A stretch of 64,000 bases of DNA. It comes from Psammoneis japonica. Lineage: Eukaryota. Made by a program: the position numbers and the translations under genes. Shown in pieces: positions 27,940-59,814 of the stretch. Position 1 is the first letter of the stretch, and the number at the start of each line of letters is the position of its first letter. The notes beneath the pieces were generated by a model, which saw only the letters and a list, made by a program, of their open reading frames with translations, had not been told where the DNA came from and did no database searches. The stretch is taken from contig QPGO01000015.1 in NCBI GenBank assembly GCA_008632985.1, positions 559,998 to 623,997 of the forward strand, given 5' to 3'.

Positions 27940-28199
27940 AAAGGATCAACATGTTGTGGGATTGGTTTGAAATCATTCATGTTGTTTATCGATTTAGTAT
28001 CACTACTGTTGTAACATTGTTCTCCTTTCAATACACTTACTCTGCATCTAGCTCCGCGGCTAGAGCCATGGATTTGTTCCGCCGCTGACGGGACACTATT
28101 CGTTCTTCTACGCCATCGGAAACAACAAACTGTCTCACTCGCATCTTCGACGGCTGTACTAGACAATCATGAATGACTTTTTAAATCGTCATTTTAGAA

Positions 28200-30950
28200 G
28201 TGCCATCATGCCTCCGCCCAGCAACAGGCTGACCCACACGTGCGGCAAAAGCAAGCGAGCACTGGTGCCACCACGGGGTGTGACCCTGAAGCAACCAACA
28301 TCAGTTCTTGTTTCTTGAAGTGCATGTTCCTTGGCCTCTCAAATGCTCTTCTTGAATGCTTGCTTCATCACAGCCAGTGAATTTTGAGTGCAAGATGCAG
28401 AATGCATGAGATGGTCATCCACCATTGTCACACAGATGCCCACAATCCTGAGCCAAGTGTTCCTGCCACCATTCACAGACAACCATGAGTTCTGCCTTGG
28501 CCAGTCAACAGTGCACCATTTCTTTGGTTGCTCCTTGATTCTTGTGTCCATGATTTGCTGTGTTGCACAACTCCCACAACTTGCTCCACTTTTGCTGATG
28601 CACGTGCTGATTTGAGCTGCCAAGTCAGGAGGTCTGCAGCTTTCCCCCACACCTTTTGCACTTCATGGGAGGTTGTTAACCTTCAAACCAACACTCTTTC
28701 TTGCAAGGATGTGTGCAAACTTTGTCAAAGAGAAGACATCCCAGGGGTGAGAGCAAAGTCAACAAAAACGAGAGCACCAGCATTGTTGGCACAAGTTTCA
28801 ATGGCCAAGCCATGCACGATCTTTTCAACAGCAGCTTGTGCAATGTCATGAGTCATCTTCAAACCCATGTGGTGGAGACAGCAGCTCTTTTTTGCTTTTG
28901 CTGGCTTTGCACAGAGAGCAATGCTGTGCTCAGCTCTCCTCCTCTTGCTGCTCTTGTTGCTCAACTCTGGTTGCCACAAAACATGGTGAGACCAAGCTTG
29001 GTGAAAAGTTTGCAACTGGTGCAACAATTTTGTGGCACATGCTGTTCAGTTGGTTCAGCTGAAAGCGACAAAGATTTCAGTGTTGAGTTTGCACAAATCT
29101 CTGTGAGTCTGGGAGAGCTCTTTTGTGTCTTGCCAGAGGGAATGATGTCACAGCTGAGGCTCCAAGTTTGGCAATGAGAAGATGCCATTAACTCAACAAG
29201 TCTTGTGGCTTGTGCTGCAATGTGTGGAGAGCAGAGTGACAAGTGAGCAGAGGAGAGGAACAAACACCGATGGGCTGAGGATGATGGTGGACAGACACAA
29301 TGCAGTGCAGCTCTGGGCCAGAGGATCCATGTTGTTTTCTTGGCAGCCAGCCCACATGACACAATTGCAGCCATGGCTCTCATGCAATGACCACCAGTTG
29401 CAAAAATCTTGCAACACTGGTGGTCATTTGCAATGTTTGGAATGTTGACTTCCTTTTCCAGAGAAGCCATAATTTTGGCTGGGTGGTGGAGGTGGTTTTC
29501 TTCCACGCGATGGCTTTGTTTTCTGTGCCTGTGTTTTTCCATGAATGTTTTGGAAGACATGCTTTTTCTGTGTTGCCTCTCCTTGAGTCACAACATCTCT
29601 CTTTTTTTGCTCCTGAGTGGGCCATTTTGGACATTGGCGAGGCATGGGGGGGGGCTTTTTTCCTGTGAGTGTGCCCCCACGGACTCTGTGCAGCATGGAG
29701 CATGTGCACCCACAACCCCCTGAGTGCAAATGTTTGCAAGAGGTTTGGCTGTGATGTTGTCACCTCTCCCAGGCACCTCTGAGATCCCTTCAAGTGCCTT
29801 CTCTGGCAACTCAGGCCCTGCCACATCTGCACATGCCTTTCCTGAGTCCTGCCGTGGCCTCACAGGCTTCTGCGGACTTGACTGCCCACCACCTCTGCAC
29901 TGGAGTCTCTTGCTGAACCAGCAGTCTCAGCTTCACCCAAGAGGGAAAGCGCCCTGACTGAAAATCCAAGCCTGCCCCCAAGTCCTCAGAGAGAACCTTG
30001 CCCCCACACCCTCAAATCTTTTGCAAGAGCTTGTTGCTCAAGAAGAAAGGGACACGGGCACATGTGGCTCACTTTTCCAATTTTTGCTGTGTGTGCCTGA
30101 ATGTTCAGCCATTGGGAAGCACCTCCAAGCCTCCTCCATTGGTCTGCAAAGCATTGTTGTGTGCAGGGCCAAAGATCTGGGCATGCTCTCATGACCGTCA
30201 TGGGACAAAGTTGCGCAAAGCCCCGACTGCAAAGGAAGTGGTGGCCAAAGGCATCTGAAGTTGAGATTGGCAGCCACTCTTTTCTGTCAAGAAATGTGAG
30301 TCAAAGCACCCACACCTGAGCCTCAGACCAAGACACTCCCTGGTGCTTGGGTTTTTTGTTGCAAGCAGCAGTTGCTGTCAAGCAAAGCCAAGAAATCCAG
30401 CGGACTTGTTGCGCTCCCTGGTGTGTGATTTTCCACTTGGCTGTTTGGTGCTCTCCAGGTGCAGTTGTCAGTCAATTGTGAGCACAGGTGCTGTCACACA
30501 AATGGCTGGTTTCCCATGGTGAGTTGTTGTCTTCAAGCACACACAACCCTCGTCAGAGCAGTCTCGACACACACAGACACCCACACTCCCTTCCCATTGT
30601 CTTTGCTTGTTTCTCTGTGGAGCACGGAGCTTGTACCTTGCAGACCTGTCAAAGGATGAGTTGATTTGAGTGCCAGGACCTTTGGTTTTGGCAGCAATCT
30701 TTCGTGCTGCTGAGTGATTGCACAGAACCTGAGCTGGGCAGTGTGCTGAGAAACAAGCGTGCCAAGTGTTTCTTTCTTCCTTTCACTGTGAATTTTCTTG
30801 TCTTTGTGAAAAATGGGCTTGACTGTCATCTGATCAGGCATATTTCAGATCAACACATTTGCAACAGTGTGCCTGATCAGATGACAGTCTAGAGTCCATT
30901 TTGCACAAATGGTGAGAAGACAACAGCAGGTTTTGGTGCAAAAAGATGCA
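28200..30950. mobile_element. Decayed repeat block, TpA/CpG-depleted, family unresolved
   Basis: Near-absence of TA and CG and Tyr-free ORFs. Its right end (about 30690-30870) resembles 51487-51655, suggesting a shared element terminus. Confidence 0.6.
30821..30889. repeat. Perfect 20-bp inverted repeat with 29-nt spacer
   Basis: GACTGTCATCTGATCAGGCA (30821-30840) pairs with TGCCTGATCAGATGACAGTC (30870-30889), extending imperfectly about 18 bp further. Confidence 0.9.
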
Positions 30951-40249: not shown

Positions 40250-42735
40250 GGCTCGCACGATGCGGGTACGATGGCCCACACAAACTTCGAAGGTGGAGTT
40301 CCAGCCGGCAGTGCTGGGAGGTAATGGCCCATATTTTCTGTCCAGTGGGCAAGGTTCCATGGGTGCCAGTGAAGGTGGCTGCACATTGAGCAGCCTCTCC
40401 AAGAATTGGCAGAGCCAGATGCTGGACCAATGTGAAAACCCTTTGTGCAATGATCACTTGGGAGGGTGGGACAGTCATCCAACAGGGTGGTTGCCAGTGC
40501 ATGCCAGGCACAGCTGTTTGGCAGCTTTCGTCAGCAAAGCCTTGAGCTTGAACACCTGGGCCAAGCGGGCATGATAAAGGAGATGGCTGTCATCCATGGA
40601 GAGAACATCTGCAGCTTCAAGTTCATCGCAAAGGGCATCAAAGGCATTGTCAAGTGGGGCCAGAGCATTGTTTGTTGGAGCTGGGAATGACAGGGGTTGA
40701 TTGCTTGGCTGGGATGCAAGCTGTGAGCAATTGAGCTTTGCTCAGAACAAAAGTGCTGAGTGTCCCCACAATTGGCTTTTCTCTCTGTGCACTTGTGTGG
40801 GTGAGCCAGAGAATCACTGGCTCATTTTTGGCAACAGGGGTCAAGAACTTTGAGCACTTGGAATTCTTGACAAAGATGCTCATTCATCACTCGATTGTCA
40901 TCCAGTGCCCAGAGAGGAGTCAGCATCAAAAATGAAGGAAAAGTTGTGTCAAGCAATCAAAAAAGGACTCTGATGTGGCTTCTGGCACAGCACAAAGCAT
41001 CCAGACCATGCCCCAGACTGCAGCACAATCTCCTGGTGCTCATTTGGGTGTGGTGTCAGCTTGCACTGTGATTTTGACACATGCTGCAAGGGGGATTTTG
41101 TCATGGATCTTGATCTCACAAAAGAGGAGAGAGAGAGAATGCACATGGCCAAAGGAGCCAAGAATGGAACAACAGCCTGCTGGCCAGTGCAACTGTCCAC
41201 TCAAGTGCACATTGCTCCTCAGCACAGTGAGCAGGTGCAATCTCTTCCATTGGAGGAGAGAGACCAAGCAATGGTGGCTGTGGAAAAAGAGATTTATGAT
41301 CAAGAAAAGGGCAGTGGTGCTGATGATGTGAAGAAGGCACAGCACCAGATGTGCCAAGCTGCCACCTGCTGTTGCTGCAACTCAAGGAGCAAGACACCCA
41401 GAGTTGACAAAACCAGGCATTGACATCACCTCACATTGGCTTGGTGCAATCTTTGATGAGGCAAGAACAGGTGCCTGTTGGGGTTCCAGAGGTGGTGGCA
41501 CAAGTCAAAGAAAAAAGCGGATGATTGATGATTCGCACGATGTGGGTGCGATGGCTTCGAAGGTCAGTTCCAGCTGGTGCTGGGGGGTGACTGGCCCATT
41601 TTCTGTCCAGTGGGCAAGGTTCCATGGGTGCCAGTGAAGGTGGCTGCACATTGTTGAGCAGCCTCTCCCTTCAAGAATTGGCAGAGCTGGATGCTTTGCC
41701 AATGTGAAACCCTTGACACAACAATCACTTGGCCAGGAGGGTGGTGGGACAGTCGTCGAACAGGGCGGTTGCTGGCGAAGCCTTGAGCTTGAACACCTGG
41801 GCCAAGCTGGCATGATGCAGGAGACAGTTGTCATCCATGGGAGAACACATCTGCAGCTTCAAGTTCATCACAAAGGGTGTCAAAGGCATTGTTGTGTGGG
41901 ATCAGAGCATTGTCTGTTGGAGCTGGGAATGACAGGGGTTGATTGCTTGGCTGGGATGCAAGCTGTTTGCAATCAAGCTTGACTCAGAATGAAGATGCTG
42001 AATGTCCCCACAATTGCTTTTCTGTGCACTTGTGTGGGTGAGCCAGAGAGTCACAAGCTCATTTTTTGGGGCAACATGGGTCAAGAACTTTGAGCACTTG
42101 GAATTCTTGACAAAGATGCTCATCCCTTGATTGTTGTCTGGAGAGGAGCCAGCATCCAAAATGAAGGACAACTTATGTCAAGCAATCAAAAAAGGACTCT
42201 GATGTGGCTTCTGGTGCAGCACAAAGCACCCAGACTGTGCCTCAGACTGTGGCACAATCTCCTGCTCATTTGGGTGTGGTGTCAGCTTGCACTGTGATTT
42301 TGACACACATTGCAAGGGGGACTTCATCATGGCTCTTGATCTCACAAGAGAGAGAGAGAGGAAGCACATGGCCAAAGAAGCCAAGAAAAGAGTGACAACC
42401 TGCTGGCCAGTGCAGCTGTCCACTCAAGCACACATTGCTCCTCAGCACAGTGAGCAGGTGCAATCTCTTCTGCTGGAGGAGAGAGACCAAGCAATGGCAG
42501 CTGTGGAAGAAGAGATGGATGATCAAGAAAAGGGTGGTGGCACTGATGATGTGGAGAGGGCACAGCACCAAAGGTGCCAAGCCACCACACCTGCTGTTGC
42601 AACTCAAGGAGCAAGACACCCAGAGTTGACAAAACCAGGTGTCGACATCACCTCACATTGGCTTGGTGCAATCTTTGATGAGGCAAGAACAGGTGCCTGG
42701 TGGGGTTCCAGAGGTGGTGGCACAAGTCAATGAAA
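40250..42735. repeat. Diverged tandem duplication, unit about 1.2 kb
   Basis: gtcaagcaatcaaaaaaggactctgatgtggcttctgg at 40948 and 42177; gacatcacctcacattggcttggtgcaatc at about 41422 and 42644. Confidence 0.9.
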
Positions 42736-45700
42736 AAAAGATGTTTCACACCAGAGAGTGATGCTGACATTTGTGGCCTGAATCAGGAAGTGCGTGAGAG
42801 GAGACTTCTTGTTGTTCTGAGTGCCAACAATGACAAATCCAAAATGCAGTCCTCAAGAAGATTGTTGTGGCTGTTGGTGGGACAACCTTGAGAAAGAGTG
42901 CAAAGCATTTTGTGGTCAAGTTTGCCATGAGATTCATGTCCAAGGACAGACTGTTGTGCCAGCATTCTTTGCCAGTGTGAAGATTTTTGAGTTTGTGTGT
43001 TCAGACACATGGAGCTTGACAAATCACTGAAGAGCCTGGGCAGCTGACATCAAAGTTGTGTGTGCATGTGTGCAATGCCTCCTCAGCCTAAATGGGGCAA
43101 TTGCTGACCCACCCCCCAGTGTAAACTGGGCTGCTGGCACAGGTCTTTCAAGATGTGCCAATGTTCCTTGGAGCCTTCCACCAGCATTGACACTGACAAC
43201 TTGCTTCTTTCTCTGTTCTTGGTGTCATCAGCTTCCTTGCTGAACCCATCTTCTTTCTTGGCAGTGTGACATTCTTGCCACAGGAGATGTTTTTGCCACC
43301 TCAACCACACACTCACAAACCAATTGCAACAATCTTGAAGCACCTCTCTTTCATCCTGATGGATGAGCAGCAACTGCTTCCAAGCCTTGACTGCCTGGAC
43401 ATGCAGGTTTGTCTTCTCATTTGCATTGAACAAGATTGGCTTGAGAGCTTCCAGCAGTGCCACCATGCCCCACTCCTCTGTGACTCTCATGAACTCTCTG
43501 TCACTCCTTCAATCTCATGACCAATGACCTTTGAACATTGTCCCACAATTGTGCTGAAGAGTGCCTTCACCTTCTTCATCTTGCAGGTCACATTTTGTTT
43601 TGCAAAGTGAGTGCATTGCTTGCCCTAAATTCCCTTGTCCTTTTCTGAGGCAGTGTCTCTCAACAGACAATCTGCTGGCTCCTTTGGCATGCTCTCCTGC
43701 CCCAGAGACACTGGCACCTGTGTCTCTAGCCCAAACATTCTTCCAAAACACTTGCTGATCTTCCTCATGGTCTCTGTGTCATGCACCCACTCCTTTTTGA
43801 ATCTTTCATGCTTCTGCACTCAGCTGTGTCCTTGCCCACATTTTCCAGGACTCAAGTTGGAGTTTCACAGCTTGCCAACAGTCGTGTGCTCAGTCTCACT
43901 GACCCCAACACAACCTTGCTGCATCCTCTTTCAGCAGACCCTTGACAGCTTCTTTGATGGCAAGGCCCTCCAGAGATTGTTTCTTTGCCCTTGTCCAGCC
44001 AGCTTGCTTGCCACAATTCACTGACATGACAAGATGTGCCTTGGGACTCATGTTGACTTCCCAGCCTTTTCCTTTGAATTCTTGATGACTTCCCAGCCTT
44101 TGAATGACACCACTTCTTTGAGTGTCATTCCACGACTTTTCAGCTTCTGTGTTGGAGTTTCATGGCTTGCTGACCAGCACATGCTCAGTCTCCCTGACAC
44201 CAAAGTCACCATGTGGCTTGACTGCAAACACACCCCTGATGCCACCAACCGACTGTTGCTGTGTCAACCAGGTGCAGAAGCCAAAAAGTGAGCACAAGAC
44301 CTGAAACCCAAACCAAGTTGCAAGTGCAAATTCACCATGTTGTCCACAATCATCAGCACATCTTACACTGCAACTTTGTCTGTCCTGTGAACACTGCTCC
44401 AAAACCCCAATGTTCCAACAAAATGGTGCAGGCAACCAACTTAAAGGCTCGACACAAGAGCAAATTTTCAATGGCACAACTGATTTGAAAGCAGCAGCAA
44501 ATGTTGCAACACTTGGTTTGGCCACTGGAAAAAAATGATGAAATGACATGCAACATTTTTGTTCAAACTCAAGATGTGTGCCAGCAAAGTTTTGAAGGAC
44601 CTTCTCAATTTTCATGCATCATGTGCAGCACCTGGACTGCCTGCCTGCCATGATGGTGCCAGTGCCAGTGTGCACTTCTGCTGCACAATCATGTGTGTGC
44701 ACACAAGACCAGGGCTCTGCATGTCTGTGGGCCGTGCCCCCCAGAAGGGCTGCTTGTTTTGATGACATGTGAGAGCCTTGGAAACAGACATGAATTTGCT
44801 CTCCCCATGTGTTCACCACACAGCTTGTGTGCCAGGCAGTGAAAATGAGCTGTTTTCATGGCAACTCACTCAGCCAGCAGACATGCTCCAGCTCCAAGTG
44901 GGACCTGCCTCACTCTGCTGAACTGTGACATCAGAGTTTTTTTTCATGTGCCCCCCCCCGCAGAGTTTTTTTCATGTGCCCCTGCATGTCATGCACTTGC
45001 AATGCACATGCTTTTTTCCACAAAATTTGTTTCATGTTCTCTGTTTTGCAAAGCCACAGGCTTTTTGGTTGTGTCCATTTGTGAGAGGCAGCAAAGATCA
45101 AGAATGAAAGAGGAGATGCAATCTTACAAAATTGCCTCTTTTTCTGTTGGCGATCATCCATGCATTCATTGCCCACCAATGCACTTGCTGTGGAGCTTGT
45201 GCACAAAATTGCATGGGCCCAATGCAATGGGCAGTCTCACCCATGGCTGGAACATGCCAGCAGTGACTCTAAATGTGCACATTGTTTTTGACTTGCACCT
45301 CTTGCACGTGGCACACACATGCCTGCACAGTCTAACATCCATGCACTGTGTGCTCACATGAGATGATGCTTCCTCTGGCAAGTGACATGTGTTCACAAAG
45401 AAAGGCGCAAGTGTCATTTTGTTGAGGCCACAGATCACAGGAGAGTGCTGCTTCCACATCAATTTTTCTTTGTTGCCATTTTGTGCCACCTTTTTGCCCC
45501 ACAAAAAACTGCCAAATGGCCCTGTTGAATCTCTTCTGTTGGCCCCACTGTGGCCCACAATGCCAGTTTGATTTAATGGCAAAATGATGCAGGTGCTCTC
45601 ACGCTGATCCCAAGTGCATGCAACACAATTTTCCAGAGCTGTTGCCTTGTGCAAAACAGTGCTGCTCAAGGTGCAACTCTGACCTGGGATCAAACACCTC

Positions 45701-47500
45701 TCAGCTCTGTTCCAGCTCTGCCATGAGACACACTTGAGCATCCTAACATGAGCAGCACAAGTCATTGGCCAGCACAGAAAGCTCATTGTGACTCCAAAAA
45801 TTGGCCAGGTTGCATGGTTGCACCTGTTTGTCCCAACAACATGTGGCATCTTGCACCTCAGATTCTGCTTTGCTGGATCAAGAAGGTGCTCAATCACCTC
45901 CATCTGAGTCATGAACATGCTGGAAAAACTTCTGGATTTTGCAATGAAGTGTTTGCAAGTCCTCAGCACAACCATCCCCTCCAACACTTGTTGGCTGTGA
46001 ACAAATGACTGGGCAATTGTCCCTCCAGATGATGGTTGCAAATGGGATGAACTGACAGCCACACTGCCCCCCCCCCTGCAAAGAATGTTGTCCCCCACTT
46101 TTAAGCCCTTGCTTTTCAAGACTTTCCCAACCTTGCAAGTTAAAAATGCACTTTCTTGTTTCAATGCCTTGGCTCCTTTGACAAATGGCAGTTGGTCCTC
46201 CTCCATGAGCTGCTCCAACAATGGCACTTGCAGCTCAGTGTCCTGGTGGAAATGTTCCCCAGGATTGGAGAATCTTTGCTGCCTTTTGAAGCACTCATGT
46301 GCAGCAAGCACCAGAGCATGCTTTTCATCAGAGTTGAACCCCATTTTGTTTTGCTCCAGCACCCATTTGTGCATCATCCAATCAGTGGCAGCTTTTGATG
46401 CACCTCAAGTGTGAGCATGAGGATCTGCAAGTGGATTTGCCCCTTTGTTCTTGACCTTGGATGGGGTCAATGTATTTGCAACATTGTGAATGTCACACAA
46501 CAGTCTTCTCTCTGGAGTCTCAAGTTTTAAATTGTTTGTCTCAGCAAGAGCAGCCCACCTGGCAGTGGAGTCCTTGGACCTGTTCATCCACCCCCTCTCC
46601 TTTGGTCATCCTTGTCCAAGGTGCTCCAGCGCTGGGTGCTTCTTCCTGACCCCACTCATCACTCAATCTTTTTGCCTTTGGAAGCAGACCTGCAGCACCT
46701 TTTGGTCTTTGTTGTGCTTCTGTTGCTGCTGTTTTTCCACCATGATGCCATGAAGTCAAGCCCATGTGTTGTGTTGTGTCGTCAAAGTTGGCAGTCATTG
46801 AGCTTTGTTTGCTGAATGCCAACAAGTGCTCACAGACAACAATGCTGGAGAGAGTTGACTTGATGTGACACCAATGCTGGCTCTGTTGCTCACATGGCAC
46901 AAATGACATCAACAGCTCTTGTGTTGACATCAAGTGATCAGACAGACCCAGCTCTTCCTGTTGGGCAATCTCCCATGCAGCACTCTGGCACAACCTGCAC
47001 CAATCATGCACAACCTGTGCAAACACTTGGTTTCAGTTCAGGAGGGTCCATGGTGTGAAAGTGTTGGGGTTGGAGGAAACAAGTGCTGCAGAGCTGCTGG
47101 CCATTGTTGTTGTTGGTGTGTGTGGTGTGTTGTGATGTTGTGCTGATGGTGGCTGCTTTTTGTGGAATTTCCATCCAAGCTGATCACAAACAGACAAAAA
47201 ACTTCAACTTGCAAACCTGGCAGGATGAACCAACCCCAGCTGACAACCCAAAAAGGGAACACTGTGGTGGTTTGGAGCTGTCTCCAGCAAAGCCTGATTC
47301 AAAGAAACCAAGAGCAGAGACTCAAGCCCTGGCGGTGCTTCACAGCACAAAAACATGAGATTCCAAGAAAGCAAGCAAGAAGACATTTTGCAATTTCACC
47401 TTGATGTCAACTTGTCAAACTCTTGGTTGCTCACATTGCAAAATTGACCCTGCTTGTGGTTCAAGTGACAGGAAGTTGGGTGAAAAGCCCGGGAAACTCA
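42735..47500. mobile_element. Decayed repeat-derived DNA, TpA/CpG-depleted, family unresolved
   Basis: Same dinucleotide signature; includes a 403-aa ORF (45166-46377) with no Tyr. Confidence 0.5.
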
Positions 47501-47579
47501 CAACCTCTCTCCAAGGACCAGCCTTCTGCTGTCAAAAATTTGTCAATTTATCAGCAACTCACCCACCCCTGATGTCAAC

Positions 47580-50500
47580 AATGAAGGAGACAAAAACAAG
47601 GCCAATGCCAAAGCCAACAAGCAAGGAAAAAACTGCATCCAACAATCAAGAGAAAGATTTGATGAGGGAAAAGATGGCAAGGAGGTCAGTGCTGTTGCCT
47701 CAAGCAAGAAAAAGAGCACAGGAGGAGAGCCATTGCAACCCATCCAGTGATTTCAAATCAGATGCTGAGTGCACCATTTTCAAGGTGCGTGGCAAAACAC
47801 ATCACCTTGATGATGGCACTCATTTGGGTGGTGGTGGCATGTTGGATGACAAAATTTGGCAGTGACGCTGGTGCCGGCTGACAATGCCCTGCCTGTCACA
47901 GCAGCGCAATGTTCCAAATGGTTCTGCACAAAAACAACTCATTGCAATGCCAGCAGAGCTGCCACATGGAGTCAAGACAAGGAAGTGGAGTTTGAAGGGG
48001 TTGTGGTGTTCCAGATTGTTGTGGTTTTGCAATGTGGTCACAACACAAAGGGAGCCAAGGACATGTGTGAACCCTTCTCACAAGGCACATCATGGATGAC
48101 TGAGATGTGGAGAAACACAAGATGCTTGTCTGGTCCATGGAATGACTGCTTGCCAGTGATCCAAAATTCATTCAGAAGGATGAGATGCCAGAGCAGCAAG
48201 CCAGGACATTCAAATGAATGGCACTGTGAGGAAACCTGCTTGTTGCCACAGTGTGGTGCACTTCAGAGCATGAAAAAGGTGGAGAGCTTGCGCCACATGA
48301 CATTGATGAGAAGACCAAAAGGACACCATGTTTGAGGTTCTAAAGTGAAAACACCCAAACTCAAGGATTCTGGAAGAAGATCATTTTCACATGTTTGACA
48401 AGCTGTCCAAATTCCAAGATGTTGTTGTCACTGACAGGAGTGCTGTTGAGACCTTTGTGCAGAAACTGCCAGGGTCAGGGAGTGTGGGGCTTGCCAGCTT
48501 GGGGGGTCAGACACCAGTGCAGTGCCCAGTGGCTGCTGCATCATGAAAAAGATGGTGGGTTGCTTGGGACATGTGCACATTTGCAAATTGGCCAGCAAAT
48601 GAATCTCCTTCTCAGGCAGCCTGCTGGGCACTCATGGCAAAGCAACCACTCACACTGGACAAAAATCCGGGCATTCAGCATTGGCAAGAATTGACAAGCC
48701 ATGGTCACAGCTCACAGCTGTTTTTTGTTGCCAGAGCAGAGGTCAAAGAGGCTTGTGGCACACAGGTCAGCTGTGCATGGGATTGGAAGCAAGAGCCAAA
48801 AGTGGAGTTTGCATGATGAACTTGCTCTGGGAGCAACACAAGTTTGAAAACAACCACAATTTTCCACTCACCAGTTTTCCACCCACCAATGCCTCCAGCA
48901 GCTTCAACAAGCACAGTGGGATCTTGATCATGTGCAATGCAAGGCAATTCTGGTGATCTGGAGCAAGATTTGCCTTCAACTGCTGTGCATGCATGGGAGC
49001 ATCCCAATCATCTGCAGCCACTCCTGTGGCATGGTTGCCATCCCTTTCAGCAGGAGAGGGTGTCACTCAAGGCAGTCCACTCAGTGTGGCAACACATGGG
49101 CTGGGACTTCTTCCATTGGCATGCAAATTGAGTGAGCAGCTTGCCAGTGCATTCACCTTGTGGCACACAGACAACTCTGCAGCAACAGGCAAGTTCAAAG
49201 TTCTCTGAGAGTTCTTTTTGACCCTGTGTGCTGTCGGACCACAAAGCACGGGGGCTGCCCTGCCAAAGACTCACTCCAAGAACATCCCAGCAGCTCCAGA
49301 GCACATTCTGGACAATGCAAAGAGTTTTTTTGGAGACCTTGGAATCACTGTCACTGCAGGCAACCACCGCCTTGGAGGCTTTGTTGGCAAGAAGGCAGCT
49401 TTTGACACATGGACAGCAATGAAATCCAAGGCATGACATGCAGTCATCCAGGGTCCAGCCAAAATGGCAATTCACCACCTGCAGACCACTTGTGCAGGTC
49501 TTCAAAAGTCCCTGCAGTGCAAGTGGCAATGCATCCAATGTGCAGCAAAGGGCTGTGGCGAGTCATTCCCCAATGCAGAAGATGTGATTGCATTCCAGTT
49601 CCTCCCAGAGAGCCAATTGCCAAGACCTCAGCTAAAGACAACAACCCAAAATTTGCCACCTCGCCCACACTTCCAACCAATTTGCAGGACTGTCCATCCC
49701 TCATCCAGTGGAGTCAATGAAGCAAAACTTTGAAGAGAGTGCTCTCAGCACTCACTTTGCTGTTGCTCCAAAAAGTTCTTCTCAGTGATGGTCTTCACAA
49801 GGACATGATTCAAGATGAGAATCGGGAACCAGCTGAAAGGAAAGCCAAGTTGCATGAGGAAAAATTTAAAATTTGTCTCCGTCCTCCACCCAATGAGATG
49901 GCCCAAGCATCAAGGTGTGGCGCCAATGCCAGTTCACAGCTGTCAGCACCCCCATTTTTGCCAAATGAAGCAGAGCTGGTCATCTTCTTTTGCCAAGAGT
50001 TCCAAGATGCCCCACATGTGCAATGTGGCCATGAGCCTCCAGACCAACTCAAAACATGTGATGGGTCATGTGATTGTAAATGTTCTGTCCAACATTCCCT
50101 TCAATGCAAGAAGGGCAGCCCAGTGATCTCATGACATGTTGAGGTGCATGATGAGTTTAGCAACTTGTTGACCAAGGCTGCCAACCAAGCCATCAGCTGC
50201 TCATCATGAACCAGCCATCAACCCTGGTCACACCATCAGAAAAGTCCTTCAGCCAATGGCAAATCTTGCAGTTTGGTCTGCAAGCACCTGCAAATGGAGA
50301 CCATGGAGACACTCTGCAATGAGGCTGGTGGGAATGCATGACAGCCAGACACCATGTTCTTTGACATCAGAGTTGCCAGTGTGGGTGCCAATCCTCCCCA
50401 CCTTTCCAAGACTCCAGAACATGCCCTGTTGGACCACAAGAAGGAGAACAAGTGTGAGTGTCTCAAGCCATGCCTTGAGAGCAGCATTGTCACTTCACCC

Positions 50501-50850
50501 CCTCTTCACAGTGTCATGCCATGAGTTGTTGGGCAAGGAAGCCAAAGCACCAGCCCTCTGGTGGGCTTTGTCAAAGCTTTCAGACTGATGGCAGAAGCCA
50601 CACTAGATTCGTCAATGCCAGAATGAGCATGGCAACATTGAGGGCTGCTCACCATTCTGTCCAAGAGGCTCAAGAATCCCCTGATCCCAGATCATCCTGC
50701 CAGAGGCACCCTCTCTCTGGGAGGGCAGTGCTGGTCCATCCTTGTGCAGGCACCAGTCTGCTTCCTGCACCAGTTGGCAACATGGCATCGAGGCTCAGCC
50801 TTGACACACCCAAGATCAAGGATGCAACCAAATGTCATCCCCCAAGACCC
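47580..50850 (+). mobile_element. Decayed non-LTR retrotransposon (RT plus C-terminal zinc knuckle/restriction-like endonuclease, CRE-like)
   Basis: LDKNPGI, EVKEACGT-QLC, EGVTQGSPLS, WHTDN (inferred WYADD, 49161-49175), HRLGGFVG, AGLQKSLQCKWQ, CDG..C..SVQHSLQCKKG and RFVNARMSMATLRAAH, in several frames. Confidence 0.85.
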
Positions 50851-52099
50851 CCAACACCACAGGGCTTCAGTTTAAAATGTTGGTGGTGCCAGAGGCAGAT
50901 CACTCAAATTTTCATGTGCAGCACTCAAAACGTCACTCATGCAAGACCCAATTTCTGCATTTGCACATGAAATTAACTGTGCAAATCCACTTTTTGCTTG
51001 TGACTTTCAGGAGGAAGCAATGTCTTGTGATGTCCTTGCTTGTGCACATGAACTGCATTTTGGTTCATGTGCACTTCAGGGTGTGTGCACCCTGCACAAA
51101 ATGCTGCACAGATTTGTGCCAAGTGAATCTGCGCGCAACTCCAGTGCAGTGGACAGCTGTTTTCATGTGTGTCTGACACAAAAGCTGCATGTTTGCACCA
51201 CTTGAAACTTGTCCACTGAGCCAGCAGTCATTTGCTGGCCATTGTGAAAAACATTTTGTCTCTGAGAAAGAGCATGTTGAGGCCAGCAAACAACACACCC
51301 CATGATGCAACTGGTGGAAAATCTGCACAAATGCACAGAAACCAGCATGTGGCTTCTGTGCAAAGCAGAGCTTGAAAAAATGAGCAGGGGCATTGAACAT
51401 TTGATGATGGATTCAAACATCTCACTTGCACCGAAGCCCCAAACTGCTTCAAAAATGCAGCATGCTCCACAGTGCTGCCAGCATGACAGCAATCTTTCAT
51501 GCTGCACAGTCATTGCACAGAAACCATGTGTGGACCAGCACTGAGAAAAACTCAAAATTGACTTTCCATCTTCTGCAGTGAATTTTGTTTCCATCAAAAA
51601 TGGAGAACACTTGCAACTGATCAGGTGCATTTTAGATCAACACATTTGCAACAATGGAGGTGGTCAGCAAAGCACTGCAGCAACTTCTTTGTTGGGGCAA
51701 ATGCCGCCACAACTTTCCTTGCAAAAAACAAATCTGCAGTGCCAGATCAAACACAAGAAACCACACAGCAATGTGTGACAGAGGCAGGAAGACTGTTCAC
51801 CAATCACACCACTGCTTCAAAAGTTCAGAGGCAAGAAGAAGAACATGAGGTCACAAAGTGTCTCAGTGTTGATTGCTTCCCTGGAGGTGTTTGAAGCTAA
51901 AGGCCCTCCTCATCTGTTGTCTCAGAGGGACATTTCCAGTCTTTGCACCCAGTCCTCTTCATTCCATGTTCAATGCACTTGCACAGCTGCAACAAAAAAT
52001 GAAATTTTTGTGAGATGTGTGCATTTTGAGAGACACAAGTTTAAAACTTGGTTGACATTGCATCGAGCCAGAGCATTGTGGGAGAAAAAGAACAGATGA

Positions 52100-52865
52100 G
52101 AATGCCACAAAATTCAGCATCACTGAAAAAGAGGGTGCACACAGAAGATTGGCAGGTGGAAGGCTGGAGTTGGAGGAGAATTGGGAGCAACCTGCACCAC
52201 ACATGAAGAACAAATGAAGTTAAATTGCAGGATTCTGTGCTGATGCTGCAGTTCCTGCGGGGTTGTTCTGGGTGCTGCAGGATTCACACGGGGCTCCATT
52301 GAAACAAGAATGGAGGGGTTGGTCAATTTGGGCTGGAGTTCATTGAGTGCACAGGTGAATCCAATGGAGCCACAAAGGACCTGCACTGCCCCTCCTCTGA
52401 TGCAACCATGAAGCAGTGGAATGAGCTGCCAACTCCCTTTGAGCATTCTGAGAAGAAGAATCCACAGAAGGGTGAGTGCTGGGTGTGCAAGCTGTGCAAT
52501 GATCCTGCAGATCCAGACAGTTCCATGCACAAGCTGAGTTTGCCACACTTTCCTGTGGGAATGTGAGAGAAGTGGACACTCTTCAAGCACAACTCAGGCA
52601 CTGAGCCTGGGGTTGATGTCATGCTCGTGACACTCACAGAAGAAATCAGATGTCAGGAGGATGTGATCATCAAGGATGGAATCCACAAGAATCACATTGT
52701 TCATGACATGGCAGCAATGACAGTTGCCAAATTCATCAAAGAGGTTGGACACGGCATCACACCATTTCTTGGCATCTGTGAACTGGTGGTCAAGCACAGA
52801 TGGGTCCCAGGTGTCATCACCGGGGAGAACCACACAGGGCAGATCATCCCTTTTTTGTTGCAGGT
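52100..52865 (-). mobile_element. Inverted fragment of a Ty1/copia (CoDi-like) pol, pre-integrase/integrase region
   Basis: LPCVVLPGDDTWDPSVLDHQF...WCDA...FDEFGNC resembles the CoDi LPHVVLT.D..WDPSVLD...FDEFGNY segment. QNPA remnant near 52230. Confidence 0.6.
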
Positions 52866-52869
52866 GTGA

Positions 52870-55260
52870 GGATGCATGGCAGACTGCTGCACCCATCATC
52901 AACTCCTGCCATGACTCTGAGGACTTGCTGGATTCACCAGATGGGGAGGAGATTGGGATGCCCAAGATGCCAGTCTTCAACCCCAAGGACATCATTGGAT
53001 GCACCTTCCTCATGAAGCCACAAGAGGATGGACAGTGCCACAGAGCCAGCATTGTCAAGGCCATTGAGGACCAGCATGATTGGGAAATTGGTGACAACCT
53101 GGAACTCATCAAGTTCATTTGTTCAGTTGACAATGATGAACACAAGGAAATCCTTGCCTGCAGTGACATCATCCATCACATGGAGCAAGAAGACAAGGAC
53201 GCCTTTGTTCAGAAATTCTGATGCAGCATTGTCTCACATGAAAGACCATTGAGACCTCACGATCCCTCTTGGAAAGACTCAAGCCACAATGTCATGCTTG
53301 AGTGGGAGAGCAGGGAGATTGCATCTGAACCTCTTGGCATCATTGTCAAGGATGACCCTGTCACTTGTGCCATCTGCGCATGCAAGCACAGTCTGCTCAA
53401 AACCAACAGATAAAAATGCTTCCTTGCCACAGCTCTGTTTCAGAAGAAGCTGTTTGCATGGTCAATCAAGCCAAGCTGCACTTGTTTCATGCTGTGCCAC
53501 ACTGCAAGTGTGGGCATGAAAGTGCCCCAGGACTGCAAGCATGCTTTGGCCCTTGACAAGTGGTGCAATGGCAACTGCAAGTGGGGAGATGCAGTGGATC
53601 TTGAGATGTCTCAGCTTGGTGAGCACAAGGTCTTCCATGATTGTGGACACTGCAAGGACTCCAGCACCCCAGCAGGACACAAGAAGAGATTCAGGTGCAC
53701 CTCGTCTGTGATGTCAAACATGATGGCGGGCACAAAGCATGACTTGTTGCTGATGGACACCTCATGGACATGCCCATCAACAGTGTCTGCTCTGGAGCAG
53801 TGTCCCCCTTGGCCTCTGACTGATGATCTTCCTGGCCAAACTCAATGAGCTAGAGACATGGGCGACCAGCATGGGCAATGCCCACCTTGAAGCCACAACA
53901 AAGGAGAAACTGCTGCACATTGTTGCAGGCCCTGAATTTGGAGAATTGGAAGGACACATCCTTGTCATCCACAAGGCTCTGTGTGGCCTCTGCAGCTCCA
54001 GCCTCAGGTGGCATGGGCATTTTGCTGATTGTCTGTGAGCTGAAGGATTCTTCTTGTGCCATGCTGAACCCAACATCTGGTTGCACCAGAATGGCAACCA
54101 TTGTGAACATGTGGCAGTGTGTGGATGACCTGTCCTTCACCATGAAAGATTCTCAGGCCTTCAGTGACACTCTCACAGAGAAGTGCAAGTTCAAACTCAA
54201 AGGCACTGGACCACTGCAATTTCACCTGTCACAACTTCTCTCATGACTCCAATGGCACACTGTGCCTTGCTCCTTGCAAGTGCATTGAACGCATGGTCGA
54301 AAATTGCACACGCCTCTTTGGGGAGAAGCCTTGTGCTGGTGTGCCATCCCCTCTTGAAAAGGAAGACCACCATGAGCTTGACACCTCCAAACTGCTCTTC
54401 TTGATGGCATCCATCAATTTCAGTCATTGGTTGGTTCCCTGCATTGGGCTGTGTTGCTCAGTTGCATCAACACCACTGCAGCCATCATGTCTTTCTCTAG
54501 TTTGCACACAGCCTGTGGATGCTTGTCCAAGATGCAATGTGGTGCCCTGTGTGTGCACACTGAGGAACATGACTGTTTGGACCTCCCCAAGCCTGTGCAT
54601 GATTGGGCTCAAACCATGAGTGGTGATGTGGAAGAACTGCTTCCAAAATGCATGCCCGGGCCTCTTGGCAAGTTCGTCACCATGACCCATGGTGTTGATG
54701 CAAGCTTTTCGCTGGATGTTCCATGACAGGTGCATCATTCATTTCCTCAACAAGTTTGCAGCTGATTGGTTCTCCAAGAAACAAGCCACAGTCAAGACTG
54801 CAACTTGTGGATCTGAGTTTGTTGCTGCCAGGATGTCTGTTGAACAGATCATTGATCTGCACATCACATGGCATTGCCTCATCATCCTGATCTGTGACAC
54901 CTCTGTTGCATGTTTGGGGACAACAAGTCAGTTGTGGACAGTGCTGCCATCCCACACTCCAAGTCAACACAAACAACACACTGCCCTCTCATTCCATCAT
55001 GTGCACGAGGCAATGGCCTCTGGTTTCCTCAAGTTCCACTTTGATGAAGGTTCTTCCCGCAACCCCGCTGACATCCTCAGCAAACACTGGGGTTGCTCCC
55101 AGGTTTGGAACCTCTTCCATCCTCTCATGTTTTGGAACTTCAATCCCAAGGCCTTTTTAGCCAATCTGACTTTGAACCCATCTCTGTGGACTCCTCAAAC
55201 AAACTTGGGAGTGACAGGATTTGAACAAGATTTTTGTTTGTCGCGCACAACTGTGTGTGC
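52870..55260 (+). mobile_element. Decayed Ty1/copia (CoDi-like) LTR retrotransposon: post-integrase linker, RT, RNase H and PPT
   Basis: IIGCTFL..PQEDGQ, DDPVTCA, GNAHLEA...AGPEFGELEG...KALCGLCSS, CVDDL (54118), WFSKKQATVKTATCGSEFVAAR and NPADILSKHWG. PPT-like GGGAG followed by TGACAG at about 55207-55217. Confidence 0.92.
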
Positions 55261-55379
55261 TGTGATTTGATTTTAAGGCACTCAACTGACAAGAATGACA
55301 ACAGCAGTGCTGACATCATGACACCAGTCTTTTGGCTCCTGCCATGGTCTCTGCACAGAGACTCATGTGCCATTTGGAC

Positions 55380-55700
55380 AGCAGCAAGGAGTCATTGTTT
55401 TTCTTCCACCCATTTTCTCTTAAATTTCTGTCAGAGCATGAGCTCCAGGGACAAAGTGTTGCTGAAGGACTGGCAAAGTTCTTGCTTGTGCGCAGGCTTC
55501 TTGAGGGCAATGCTCTGACAACATTGAAGAACACTGCTGATTGCCAAGCCACCAAAGCCAATGTCACCTTCAAAGCCTGCACAGAGAAAATGATGCAAAG
55601 CTTCTTCCCATGCAGGTTGGTGCTGCTGCAGAGGCATTGTCTGCCATGGTGCTTCGCACACAAGCCCGCTGATGTCAAGACTCATGAGAGTGTGCTGCAG
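55380..55700 (+). mobile_element. Decayed gag-like fragment (probably Ty3/gypsy-type)
   Basis: KFLLVRRLLEGNALTT...FKAC...FFP..LVLLQRHCL...KPADVK resembles diatom LTR gag sequences (recalled pattern, not searched). Confidence 0.5.
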
Positions 55701-56250
55701 ATGCGTTCCAGCCTGGGTGGGACTGCATGTGACATTGGGCCCACAGAATTCACGCGCAAGCTCTGCCACAAAAGCATTGGGTGATGCGTGCACCAACAAT
55801 TGCCAGTGTGGAAAAAGAGGCAATTTTGCAAATGTGCAAGCTCCTCCATGCTTGGAGGGCACAATCTCCAGTTTGCCCGGGTGTGTTGTCCAGACATTGG
55901 AAAATGCCCAGCTGATTTTCACTTGTGTGCAAAGAATGGTCACAAGCATCTCAAGCCTTGTCTTGAGCAATGACATCATTTCATGCCATTTGTCATGTCG
56001 TGCAAGATGATCCACTTAGCAAAAAAGCCAGCCCTGCCAAGACCATGCTCTGCATGATTGCTGCAAAGCCCATGGACAAGTGGCAAATGCCCTGTTCAGA
56101 AGTTTGCAGCTTTGTGAATGTGATGATGAGTGTCACTGCAGTCAGAGCTGCTCATCAATGCATCAGGGGCTCATGCTCCATCTTCACAAATTAGCTCCAG
56201 GTGCCCTCAGTGGGAAGATGGTGCTGGTTTGTCACTCCACAGGCACTGAG
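55700..56250 (+). mobile_element. Second 3' fragment of a CRE-like non-LTR element
   Basis: KWQMPCSEVCSFVNVMMSVTAVRAAHQCIRGS parallels the C-terminus at about 50600-50670. Confidence 0.7.
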
Positions 56251-56803
56251 AAGTGCCATGCAATCTGGATGTCACACACTGGGACAAAGTGCTGAGGCCA
56301 TTTTGCAAGATGCTGTGGACATCTTGTTGTGCGCATGACACAAAAAGCACACAAAAAACACAGCTTCCTCATGTGCAAAACCCAGCTTTCTCCTGTGCAA
56401 GCACCTTGTACATTTTGTTTGGTTTTTGTTGTAGAAACTGTGCCAGCTCTGTGCATGCACATCAGCTGCATGCTTCAGTGCCAATCACAACTTTGATCGC
56501 CAACTGCCAACCGCCAACTTGAGATTGCGCCAACACAAAAAATGACCACAACCATGAAAATCCAAAAAGCAGTCCTGCTCCGAGTGATGCTCAAAGCAGG
56601 ACATTGAGTGCCACACCTGTTCCCAGCTTGGAGACCATTGCTCTAGCATCAATGATTTTGCAGTTGCCGAGTGCAAGTCCAGCTCTGAGGAGCACACCAA
56701 CTCACCCAACAAGACCACTGAGTTGCAATCCTGCACTGAGTGACAAGTCCAGCACACAACTCCAAGCAACAGCCCAGCGCCAAGCTCGAGTCCATGTGCA
56801 GCT

Positions 56804-58325
56804 CCATCACAGCTAAACAACTGCACACTCAATGCAAGCACATTCACAAAATGTGAGCATGAAAAACAGAAGCGTTGCAAAGGCTGACTCATGTTTCTCT
56901 CCTGTTGTTACATTCAAAGTTTGGAATGGACCCTGTCACCCAATCCTGCCCTTGATCTGATGCTGCAGCAACTGTGGAGCCCAACTCACTCCCTGCATCC
57001 AATCCTGCACTAACTCTGAATTGGGCTGGCCCACCTGCTCTGCCTGCTTCCAACCCAAGTCCACAGCCAAATCCTCCTTCTGTGCCAAATCTGATGCCCG
57101 ATCCAAATGCACTGTTGACATTTACAATGCCAAATTTGACAACCAATGCTCCAAGTGGCCTTGCTGATGGATGAAGAAAATGAATGGGAAGAGGACAGTT
57201 GAGGGAATGCCTGCACTTGGATGTGGCTGTCTTCTAGATTTCAATCCCTTGAGTTGGTTGAACCTTGATTCTCTCTTGTCCCAGACAGCTTTGCTCAAAC
57301 AGACAAGGGTCCATTTGTTGGATCCAGCAAGGGAGCACCAACCCCGCACATTTCAACCCAGCATCATTGCCTGCTCTGAATCGGACTTGCCCACCTGCTC
57401 CGCCTCCGTTGCTTCCTCTTGCTTCCCACTTCCTGCTTCCTGCTGCTACTCCCACACCAAATCTGACACTTGATCTGACTCCACTGCCAACATCAGCAAA
57501 TGCTGGCACCAAATCTGATGACCAGTCCTGCACCTGGTCCCACCCCAGCACCATCCCCGCAGCCCATGTCCATCACAGCTAAATGGCTGCACACTCAATG
57601 CAAGCACATTCACAAAATGTGAGCATGAAAAAGAGAAGCGTTGCAAAGGCTGACTCGTGTTTCTCTCCTGTTGTCACATTCAACGTTTGGAATGGACCCC
57701 GTCACCTGATCCCACCCCCGATCTGACGCTGCAGTAACTGCTGAGCCCAACGGACTCCCTGCATCCAATCCCACACTAACTCTGAATTGGGCTACCCACC
57801 TGCTCCACCCACTTCCGACCCAAGTCCGCAGCCTGATCCTCCTCCACCCCAAATCTGACACCCGATCCGAATGCACCGTTGACATTTACAGTGCCAAATT
57901 CGACAACCAATGCTCCAAGTGGTCTTGCGAATGGATGAAAATGAATGGGAAGAGGATAGTCAAGGGAATGCCTGCACTTGGATGCAGCTGTCTTCTAGAT
58001 TTCAATCCCTTGGGTTGGCTGAACCTTGATTCTCTCTCGTCCCAGACAGCTTCGCTCAAACAGACAAGGGTCCATTTGTTGGATCTAGCAAGGGAGCACC
58101 AACCCCGACACATTTCAACCGGCATCATTGCCTGCTCTGAATCAGTCTTGCCCACCTGCTCCGCCTCCGTTGCTTCCTTTTGCTTCCCACTTCCTACTTC
58201 CCACTGCTGCTCCCACACCAAATCCGACACTTGATCCGACTCTACTGCCAACATCGGCAAATGCTGGCACAAAATCCGATGACCAGTCCTGCGCCTGGTC
58301 CACCCCAGCACTGTCCCCGCAGCCT
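56804..58325. repeat. Tandem duplication, unit about 766 bp (56804-57569 and 57570-58325)
   Basis: ccatcacagctaaa...ctgcacactcaatgcaagcacattcacaaaatgtgagcatg begins both copies, which align throughout. Confidence 0.95.
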
Positions 58326-58679
58326 TTGTAATTTCTGTCTTTCACACCAATTGAACTCTACCTCTGGCTCCACCTGCTCCTCCGGCAAGTGCTTCATCAA
58401 GCAGTCCTGCTCCGAGTGCTCCAAGCAGATCAACCGAGTGCAAGAAGCCCTGCCACTGTCTCATTTTTTCCAGATGCACTCTTCCTACACCACCACTGTC
58501 ACCTCCTCCTGCCCTCAATCTAATGGTGAAGCCAAGTTGCACCCAATCCCACTGCATCAAACTCGACGAACTCCATGTTGTGAGACCCTGCAGGTGGAGG
58601 GATGAGGGACATCATCTCATTTCTTGTTGGCAATCTAGCTTGCCATTGTGAGTGTGAGTTTTGTGACTGACATGATAAT

Positions 58680-59814
58680 GCTGCTATGACATCTCTGCCG
58701 TGCTCTGCCTCACCTCATAATCCGGTGTTATTTTGCTCGGAAGGGTTTATGCGGATTTCGAGCGACGGAGTGGGGACCATGATCGAAGTAGGTAGTCTTG
58801 GCTGCGAATGGCAACCATAATGACACGGAATGCATCAATCTCCTTACGCGCCGAATACGAAGAATTCAAATTCTTCGGCATACCGGCAGCATACCGGTGG
58901 CTCTTTTTTGGAGACTCGAATGTATCACACATTGGCGGGCATTCCTTTGTCTCCAACCGTATTGAGCGAGTCAGTCGAAAGCTGAGTGTTGTAGAAGTAA
59001 GCTATGTACTGCGTACCGGTACCTGAAATGCCGGTGGCTCCTTTCTGGAGACTCGACAATGTCTCATACATTTGAGGGCAGTCCTTTGTCTCCAACCGTA
59101 TTGAGTCAGTTGAAAGCTGAGTGCTGTAAGCTACTGCGTACCGGCACCTGCAATACAGATTCCGTCTTTCTTTTCGAAAGAACTTCGCAATGGAACAAAC
59201 CCAACTTTTCTGCTGGGGAAGGACCAGTCGCTTGAGACTTACATCATTTATTCTGTCAAGATTGTTCTGGATGCAACTCGCGTTTGCTTCTGTGTACTTG
59301 TGATGATAGAGGGGGCGGCTACGCCAGTGTGGAGTTTGCCCGGGATGTGGAACTCCAGTCGGTGCAGTATGGCACAACACAAGAGAACTGGGCCTCCCAT
59401 CTTGCCAACGAATGGAACTCAAATCCCGAACAACATCGGCCGATCTGTGTACTACAAGCCGGGATTCACGACGCCGCAATCCCAAATATTACGAATGAAG
59501 TCTACTTGGCGAATGTTGAGTGGTATTTACAGATGATGCATTCACAATGTGAACATATAGTCTGGCTCGGTAATACAAGCCCTCAAACAGATGCGAGGCC
59601 TCAGAAGAAGAACCGGACACAGGAATGGAATCATGCCATACGCGACAAGATACTTGCCAAACAGTTTCGAGATAGCAGTTCTTTTGTTGATGTCCATGCT
59701 GCTTCCACCGGCTTTCACATGGCGGATAATATTCACATGGCTGCACCATGGTACAAAAACTTGGGTACAACTTTTCTCAAAGTCATGAAGTCTTCTCACT
59801 ATGACATTGAGTAA
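58680..59814 (+). pseudogene. SGNH-fold (PC-esterase/TBL-like) gene, copy 2; 5' half disrupted, 3' ORF intact
   Basis: Near-identical to 27150-27940 in its 3' part. The 5' part has indels and a local duplication of the WLFFGDS segment (about 58893-59026 and 59030-59150). Confidence 0.65.

Follow-up and report, generated by a model that had tools for sequence, protein, structure and literature searches.

The 64,000-nucleotide window of contig QPGO01000015.1 described here (the window) contains three blocks in which TA and CG dinucleotides are strongly depleted and TG and CA are abundant, beside genic DNA that contains all four. We interpret these blocks as three silent mobile-DNA domains that have been mutated in place by two strand-symmetric, dinucleotide-specific transition processes, a reading to which we assign a probability of about 0.7. 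The first process would convert CpG to TpG or CpA, and would be the ordinary decay that results from deamination of 5-methylcytosine (5mC) in methylated repeats; its polarity is seen in conserved codons, and methylation is presumed. The second would convert TpA to TpG or CpA by A:T to G:C transitions, with the two strands hit independently and T-A-Y preferred (Y, pyrimidine; R, purine). Both would be directed by a single domain of silent chromatin or methylation. For an element subjected to both, tyrosine codons, TAA and TAG stops, and TATA and AATAAA motifs would be lost, TGA stops would arise from CGA, and inactivation would be irreversible.

The depletion is illustrated by the 17,971 bp between positions 40330 and 58300, where there are 59 TA, 122 CG, 2017 TG and 2106 CA dinucleotides, with ratios of observed to expected from base composition (O/E) of 0.05, 0.11, 1.92 and 1.76 respectively. 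The baseline is pooled from three genic stretches of the window (3300-27900, 31100-40100 and 58800-64000; 38.8 kb), in which the O/E ratios are 0.55 for TA, 1.01 for CG, 1.16 for TG and 1.11 for CA; the right flank of block 3 has 0.51 for TA and 0.86 for CG. At the genic ratios the same 17,971 bp would be expected to contain ~636 TA and ~1087 CG (Poisson p ~1e-191 and ~4e-305), and an earlier reading made from the sequence alone (the sequence-only reading), which had noted that about 18 kb is short of TA and CG relative to its neighbouring genes, is well founded in this respect. All three blocks have TA O/E ratios of 0.03-0.05 and CG ratios of 0.09-0.17, with values of 0.04 and 0.09 in the core of block 3. 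The motifs TATA and AATAAA are both absent from the 17.1 kb core and are present 37 and 19 times respectively in the 38.8 kb of genic DNA, and the stop triplets in the block, counted on both strands, are 50 TAA, 29 TAG and 888 TGA. Relative to the genic ratios the core (40400-57500) has a deficit of ~562 TA and ~930 CG (1492 together) and a surplus of ~768 TG and ~771 CA (1539 together). The share of pyrimidine-purine (Y-R) steps among all dinucleotides is 0.239 for block DNA versus 0.236 for genic DNA, and the G+C content (GC) is 0.49 in 40330-58300 versus 0.48-0.49 elsewhere. Because the Y-R share and the GC are unchanged and the TA and CG deficit approximates the TG and CA surplus, we conclude that TA and CG have been redistributed to TG and CA through transitions alone. 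We note that the ordinary genes of the window already have a TA O/E ratio of 0.55, and low-level leakage of the process acting on the blocks is one conceivable contributor.

The limits of the blocks differ in their sharpness. When scored in 200-bp bins the left edge of block 3 is abrupt (~40330-40400), and its right edge is graded (Table 1); at each block edge TA and CG recover together. These common edges are the reason for supposing that the two losses share their targeting. The span 40330-58300 proposed in the sequence-only reading is accurate at its left end, although its right end falls inside the gradient, and the blocks at 1-2990 and 28210-30790 had been overlooked.

The direction of the changes can be deduced from a Ty1/copia polyprotein remnant in block 3 (see below; Table 1), using 555 columns at which at least five intact copia homologs agree at a level of at least 70%. 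None of the 30 conserved tyrosines is kept, with TGY replacing 15 of them and CAY seven, and only five of the 38 conserved arginines remain, each of them encoded by AGR; the others include CAY (9), CAR (3), TGY (6) and TGA (4), and no CGN arginine codon survives at a conserved column. Leucine, glycine, aspartate, histidine, tryptophan, phenylalanine and lysine are kept at 55-80% of their conserved columns. There are 94 replacements that can be explained by a single transition, and 74 of these are CG to CA (28), CG to TG (15), TA to TG (23) or TA to CA (8), with 20 other transitions. Among these polarised changes, A to G is found 23 times as TA to TG versus six times elsewhere, T to C eight times as TA to CA versus twice elsewhere, and C to T or G to A 43 times in a CpG context versus 12 times elsewhere; A to G change is thus elevated at TpA. 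The intact copia homologs contain ~4% tyrosine and ~1% cysteine, and intact relatives in metagenomes have O/E ratios of 0.57-0.70 for TA and 0.87-1.12 for CG, so that intact copies are not equally TA-free. The ordinary tyrosine and TA content of these relatives indicates that the ancestors were normal, and that the present composition arose through mutation and is not an adapted one. At the level of codon alignments, these comparisons show the polarity of both changes, with TA and CG each having given way to TG and CA.

Two tandem duplications are informative as to when and where the changes occurred. In tandem duplication A both copies lie in the block, and many of their differences are double swaps with TG in one copy and CA in the other (Table 1), in which one ancestral TA or CG is resolved independently in each copy after the duplication. 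Tandem duplication B is at the block edge, and here the inner copy has TG or CA where the outer copy has CG at 17 sites and TA at five, with the reverse arrangement at only one and two sites respectively. An unmutated pair of duplicates adjoining blocks 2 and 3 provides a control, having 36 common TA, 31 common CG and a single TG/CA swap. The swaps between tandem copies, together with the lighter mutation of the copy at the edge, show that the process acted on resident DNA, after duplication and within positional limits. A ~1.2-1.5 kb duplicate (26918-28141 and 58653-60128; 78-95% identity) lies directly to the left of block 2 and to the right of block 3, with neither copy hypermutated. Segmental duplication is one possible origin, and another is that it belongs to a gene family and borders the silent domains.

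The bases flanking the surviving dinucleotides point to a difference between the loss of TA and the loss of CG. Among the 59 surviving TA, 38 are in Y-TA-R, three in R-TA-Y, and 18 in mixed contexts, corresponding to ratios of survivors to genic occurrence of 0.135, 0.007 and 0.024 respectively (chi-square p ~1e-15), whereas no flank effect is seen among the CG survivors (p = 0.17). By arithmetic on the survivor counts, once the two sets are scaled to size, the TA ratios agree with each strand being hit independently and with the A in T-A-Y being about three times as vulnerable as that in T-A-R. For tyrosine codons (TAY) this T-A-Y rule predicts that a 5′ pyrimidine will favour replacement by cysteine over histidine, and that a 5′ purine will lead to both. 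The Cys:His counts following a 5′ pyrimidine are 10:2 in the window, and 7:2 and 7:3 for P0012, a tyrosine-poor copia protein from an unrelated public record, when compared with L001 and L002 respectively; following a 5′ purine the same three counts are 5:5, 4:13 and 4:10. L001 and L002 are intact relatives (76-82% identity) from a metagenome scan with P0012, in which P0012's own contig was not recovered. Comparison of P0012 with these two relatives implies 33-39 changes of the TA type and only 6-7 of the CG type. A different dependence on flanking bases, and the loss of TA without that of CG in P0012, argue for two processes that are separable and not for one, and in agreement with the sequence-only reading the loss of TA follows a second route distinct from 5mC deamination.

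We note that P0012 is one of four copia reverse transcriptase (RT) proteins in unrelated public records (P0001, P0005, P0012 and P0013) that are poor in tyrosine (0.5-2.3%) and rich in cysteine and histidine; P0005 has 0.5% tyrosine and 7.9% arginine. Fifteen of the 18 other homologs that were fetched have 3-5% tyrosine, and three short ones (P0002-P0004) have 4.6-6.4%. Hypermutation such as that in the blocks probably also occurs in other organisms or samples.

The identifiable part of the block DNA is derived from a retroelement. Homologs of a read-through of 53569-54600 include five proteins of near its length, four of which have PF07727 (RVT_2), and 17 longer ones, all of which have PF07727; a tblastn comparison of copia homologs with the window gives a best E value of 1e-141. 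The matches define a remnant extending from RT to RNase H and an inverted scrap (Table 1), and represent only homolog residues ~1087-1880 and ~700-775. A complete element with gag, protease, integrase, RT and RNase H (gag-PR-IN-RT-RH) was not found, and self-comparison of the window revealed no pair of long terminal repeats (LTRs). Judged by homology, 52892-55159 represents part of a Ty1/copia element and lacks LTRs. Further information comes from X1, the only sequencing run containing the stretch, which is from one study and whose contigs are built of 31-letter words. No RNA data set is listed as containing the stretch, and runs X2 and X3 contribute almost nothing to it. Many related X1 contigs pile up over two segments of block 3 that together cover ~6 kb (Table 1), and the rest of the block is at approximately single-copy depth; the first segment, 42620-45275, is interpreted as a multi-copy repeat family, which is unclassified. 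The description of the whole region as transposable element DNA, and of the hypermutation as transposon-restricted, in the sequence-only reading is borne out in part, in that ~2.5 kb is demonstrably derived from copia and ~6 kb is covered by the contig pile-ups; in the remainder there is no recognisable homology.

None of 24 stop-to-stop open reading frames (ORFs) in the blocks, including those of block 2, has a significant Pfam match, and a match to Peptidase_C107 in one block ORF is below threshold (16.1 bits against a cutoff of 25) and is attributed to chance. A 1500-residue read-through of 51400-55899 likewise matches no Pfam family. The largest ORF of the blocks, which encodes 412 aa on the minus strand (45169-46404), has no homolog among 2217 candidates and is probably a chance ORF; long chance ORFs are expected in the blocks because TAA and TAG are nearly gone. 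Precisely at the right edge of block 2 there is an imperfect palindrome (30803-30909; 75% self-complementary over ~107 bp), and the sequence beside it (30798-30880) matches 51585-51667 of block 3 at 72% identity; this may be the terminal repeat of an element.

Table 1. Coordinates of the hypermutated blocks, duplications and element remnants in the window
Feature	Coordinates	Strand	Details
Hypermutated block 1	1..2990	.	TA 7 (115 expected), CG 19 (165 expected); truncated by window start; content unclassified
Hypermutated block 2	28210..30790	.	TA 4 (86 expected), CG 28 (165 expected); content unclassified
Hypermutated block 3, core	40330..57500	.	In 40400-57500: TA 48 (610 expected), CG 96 (1026 expected), TG 1941, CA 2017
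Graded right edge of block 3	57500..58700	.	Joint recovery of TA and CG; seen in 200-bp bins and tandem duplication B
Tandem duplication A, both copies in block	40253..42738 (40253-41516, 41533-42738)	+	114 mismatches, 87 transitions, 22 TG/CA double swaps
Tandem duplication B, block edge	56803..58324 (inner 56803-57564, outer 57569-58324)	+	12 TG/CA swaps
Unmutated control duplicate	27156..28055	+	95% identical to 59031-59920; adjoins blocks 2 and 3
Ty1/copia polyprotein remnant, RT to RNase H	52892..55159	+	Homolog residues ~1087-1880 (tblastn); frameshifts, TGA stops
Inverted copia polyprotein scrap	52639..52848	-	Homolog residues ~700-775 (tblastn)
Contig pile-up, run X1	42620..45275	.	Summed word depth up to ~8,500 vs ~60
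Contig pile-up, run X1	52580..55899	.	Summed depth up to ~22,000; overlaps copia RT region

The blocks are best filed as TpA hypermutation of the type seen in Bigelowiella natans superimposed on ordinary CpG decay, the TpA route having been known since 2026. In mutation-accumulation lines of B. natans, Mettrop et al. report two integrated viral regions that mutate at ~6e-7 per site per generation, ~1000x background, with 230 of 231 mutations being A>G or T>C and, according to the authors, all of these occurring at TpA to give TpG or CpA; the mutations are seen in some lines only (bioRxiv 10.64898/2026.01.13.699255). Their genome contains 124 clusters of windows that are poor in TpA and rich in CpA and TpG, the TpA-poor coding sequences are enriched for RT and DDE domains (Pfam), and an ADAT2-like DNA adenine deaminase is proposed; the words 'CpG', 'LTR', 'copia' and 'diatom' are absent from the preprint as far as its text was available (bioRxiv 10.64898/2026.01.13.699255). 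The supposition in the sequence-only reading that such a process had not been described is therefore superseded, since TpA-only hypermutation of foreign DNA has already been measured (bioRxiv 10.64898/2026.01.13.699255). We found no description of joint TA and CG hypermutation in transposable elements in the literature, and the accessible portions of three diatom papers (PMC2806351, PMC4504042 and PMC6604790) are silent on it.

Several features are common to the two systems. In both, A:T to G:C changes at TpA yield both TpG and CpA, and discrete blocks of foreign or silent DNA have a TpA-poor footprint rich in CpA and TpG; as in B. natans, A:T to G:C change here is confined to TpA and the blocks lie beside normal genes. 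The lack of an excess of G:C to A:T change in B. natans is not reproduced, with 15 CG>TG and 28 CG>CA changes here, which we read as the second process. There are also differences in extent and target, in that the blocks are near saturation (TA O/E 0.03-0.05) compared with a Rho of 0.45 reported for the B. natans nucleocytoplasmic large DNA virus (NCLDV) region, and the target is a copia retroelement block where theirs is integrated viral DNA. A T-A-Y flank preference is seen here, whereas their main text, in the parts available, reports a TpA motif only. The host is apparently another one: B. natans is intron-rich, whereas single genic ORFs of the window are long (532-1037 aa) and span whole Pfam domains.

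Other systems resemble the pattern in part. Decay of 5mC at CpG in silenced repeats, which includes the CpG-type signatures of some basidiomycetes that resemble repeat-induced point mutation ('RIP-like'), shares with the blocks the conversion of CG to TG and CA on both strands, the confinement to repeat blocks and the lack of flank dependence, but leaves TpA untouched. APOBEC3 and ADAR enzymes act on single strands or RNA, with changes that are strand-biased and clustered. They resemble the process here in being deaminase-type hypermutators of mobile or viral nucleic acids, and ADAR reportedly prefers a U on the 5′ side; the changes in the blocks are in contrast strand-symmetric, unclustered, made in place on resident DNA and strictly bound to dinucleotides. 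Fungal RIP, dependent on RID or DIM-2, also hypermutates mobile DNA in place, through irreversible transitions and with sharp domain edges. RIP changes C to T mainly at CpA, so that TpA is enriched and GC is lowered, according to the portion of the account available (PMC2621366). In the blocks TpA is erased (O/E 0.05), CpA is enriched (O/E 1.76) and GC is unchanged, the opposite pattern, as the sequence-only reading had noted. As to a dependence on duplication, most of the block is at single-copy depth, two parts have many related contigs, and the adjoining 95%-identical 900-bp duplicate is unmutated.

The chemistry of the second process is a separate question. Our leading guess among the chemical options, held at somewhat less than even odds, is DNA adenine deamination, in which adenine would be enzymatically deaminated to hypoxanthine in DNA and read as G. 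An alternative is that a TET/JBP-type dioxygenase oxidises the T of TpA to 5-hydroxymethyluracil (5hmU) or 5-formyluracil (5fU) in silent DNA, with mispairing to G, a known property of 5fU, then giving T to C changes. The sequence outcome would be the same as for adenine deamination, and the flank preference could equally be written as R-T-A, although we know of no thymine dioxygenase or 5hmU in the host. In dinoflagellates 5hmU made by TET/JBP enzymes marks repeat elements, and older work, in the parts of these accounts available, gives a preference for TA and TC (PMC11572971, PMC11071213), but a base-resolution map of 5hmU in Breviolum is described there as having no sequence preference (PMC11071213), and an ADAT2-like deaminase, itself only proposed, is preferred in the B. 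natans study (bioRxiv 10.64898/2026.01.13.699255). On balance we consider modified thymine to be unlikely.

A single enzyme of dual specificity is improbable. It could be ADAT2-like and act on the A of TpA and the C of CpG, or be an oxidase of 5-methylpyrimidines with T and 5mC at symmetric Y-R steps as its substrates, and the common edges of TA and CG depletion in all three blocks and their similar saturation (O/E 0.04 and 0.09) are in keeping with this, as is a report, seen in part, that amphioxus ADAT2 can deaminate DNA in two ways, from C to U and from A to I (PMC10354150). However, the flanking bases have a very strong influence on the loss of TA and none on that of CG, the public copia records P0012 and P0005 are tyrosine-poor and yet have kept arginine, and in the available B. 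natans text the TpA changes come with essentially no G:C to A:T excess (bioRxiv 10.64898/2026.01.13.699255).

A technical artefact, in which modified bases in silent DNA are miscalled in sequencing or polishing such that TA and CG are read as TG and CA, we regard as very improbable. Symmetric modified sites that are miscalled on each strand would likewise yield a mixture of TG and CA, and X1, the sole run with the stretch, has no library type on record and is perhaps from the assembly's own sample. However, X1 contigs with a word depth of ~52-62 (~57x) reproduce the block nearly letter for letter, with 13 differences in 3389 bp, none in 550 bp and five in 1448 bp, which fits accurate reads and not error-prone long ones. 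These read-derived contigs keep TG and CA and do not restore TA and CG, and their agreement argues against a long-read base-calling artefact. Nineteen of 29 listed differences between the window and X1 within the block are at Y-R steps and go in both directions (TA or CG versus TG/CA, or TG versus CA), which fits two haplotypes or strains hit independently and is the one hint here of a raised de novo rate. In addition, the replacement of tyrosine by cysteine and histidine is also seen in proteins of unrelated public records, the edge gradient and the partial states of the tandem copies look biological, and TpA hypermutation in B. natans was measured with Illumina data, as its available text states (bioRxiv 10.64898/2026.01.13.699255).

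Editing during retrotransposition, by an ADAR-like activity on RNA or an APOBEC-like one on cDNA with integration of the edited copies, has a still smaller chance of being correct. The target does include a retroelement, and a liking of ADAR for U in the 5′ position has been described (cited in bioRxiv 10.64898/2026.01.13.699255, available in part), but the products are strand-symmetric, with TG and CA gains in the core that are equal (~768 and ~771), and no strand-coordinated runs were found among the polarised events (47 runs versus 37.9 +/- 4.3 in shuffles). The lack of such runs and the positional differences between copies mutated in place both argue against editing of RNA or cDNA prior to integration; neighbouring tandem copies differ depending on where in the block they lie, most of the block is at single-copy depth and not demonstrably retroelement, and the B. 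natans process acts on resident single-copy DNA in the account available (bioRxiv 10.64898/2026.01.13.699255). Joint under-representation of CpG and UpA is common in RNA viruses, and the genic TA O/E ratio is already 0.55, but neither adaptive dinucleotide avoidance of this sort nor biased repair, with T:G in methylated DNA skewed to C:G at TpA-like sites, is at all likely as the source of the blocks, since conserved tyrosine and arginine codons are destroyed and stops created, which is not selected coding adaptation, the depletion is ~10x deeper than in genes, and repair restoring C:G would oppose the loss of CpG.

There are several points that weigh against mutation of three mobile-DNA domains by two processes. 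First, the DNA that is provably of transposable element origin amounts to ~2.5 kb of the 22.7 kb in the blocks, and Pfam itself finds nothing. Second, in the flank analysis the ancestral element sequence is represented by the tetranucleotide frequencies of genic DNA, and the Cys:His tests are individually weak, with Fisher p values of 0.17 for the window, 0.014 for L001 and 0.095 for L002, the two P0012 comparisons being non-independent. Moreover, a simple symmetric T-A-Y rule would not lead one to expect the excess of histidine at R-TA-Y in P0012. Third, 144 further columns of the copia alignment differ in ways that are not explicable by one transition, and reflect ordinary divergence or overlapping frames. 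Fourth, the co-depletion of CpG has no counterpart in the available account of B. natans, where no CpG effect is reported, and the coupling is without precedent there. Finally, the uncertain origin of the X1 library means that it does not provide independent support, and adenine deamination and thymine modification are not distinguishable from the sequence by itself.

Some neighbouring features of the window are of note. At 5425-10362 there is a gene with HSA and SNF2 ATPase domains, followed by an ORF that has Helicase_C, and a RING-finger and Helicase_C protein is encoded at 60276-61235, ~1.5 kb past block 3; the presence of these chromatin-type genes flanking the blocks is probably a coincidence. 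A ~135-bp direct repeat (4286-4418 and 4941-5075; 95-98% identical) has its second copy directly after the sole N of the window, at 4940, which is suggestive of a gap or a join artefact in the assembly. Two repeat pairs with 81-90% identity, 33657-33961 with 37519-37827 and 36097-36251 with 37854-37999, are in or beside a protein-kinase ORF region (34961-38148), which points to tandem duplication of exons or genes.

Hypermutation of DNA that is targeted to TpA and converts A:T to G:C has been reported once to date, in one alga and in a 2026 preprint. The window adds a second, independent example, apparently from another host, with the process run to completion on a retrotransposon. It goes beyond the B. 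natans preprint in its co-extensive CpG decay, the saturated end state of a retrotransposon, the flank rule, and a host that is probably different. The edges held in common with CpG decay point to targeting by silent chromatin or methylation, and other public records indicate that the TpA route can run without loss of CpG. Any candidate enzyme has to account for the T-A-Y rule with independent strand hits. In practical terms, hypermutated DNA defeats profile searches (Pfam is blank on a real RT) and yields long spurious ORFs, leading to mis-annotation in algal genomes. The presence of tyrosine-poor copia proteins in public records of unrelated origin is a hint that the process is common in nature. 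It is conceivable, though we think the balance is against it, that this is a widespread chromatin-directed genome defence of marine protists, with a T-A-Y-specific DNA adenine deaminase that would hit each strand independently and share its silent domains with CpG methylation. If so, retrotransposons would be driven to a TA-free and CG-free end state, and the process would not be the peculiarity of one chlorarachniophyte.

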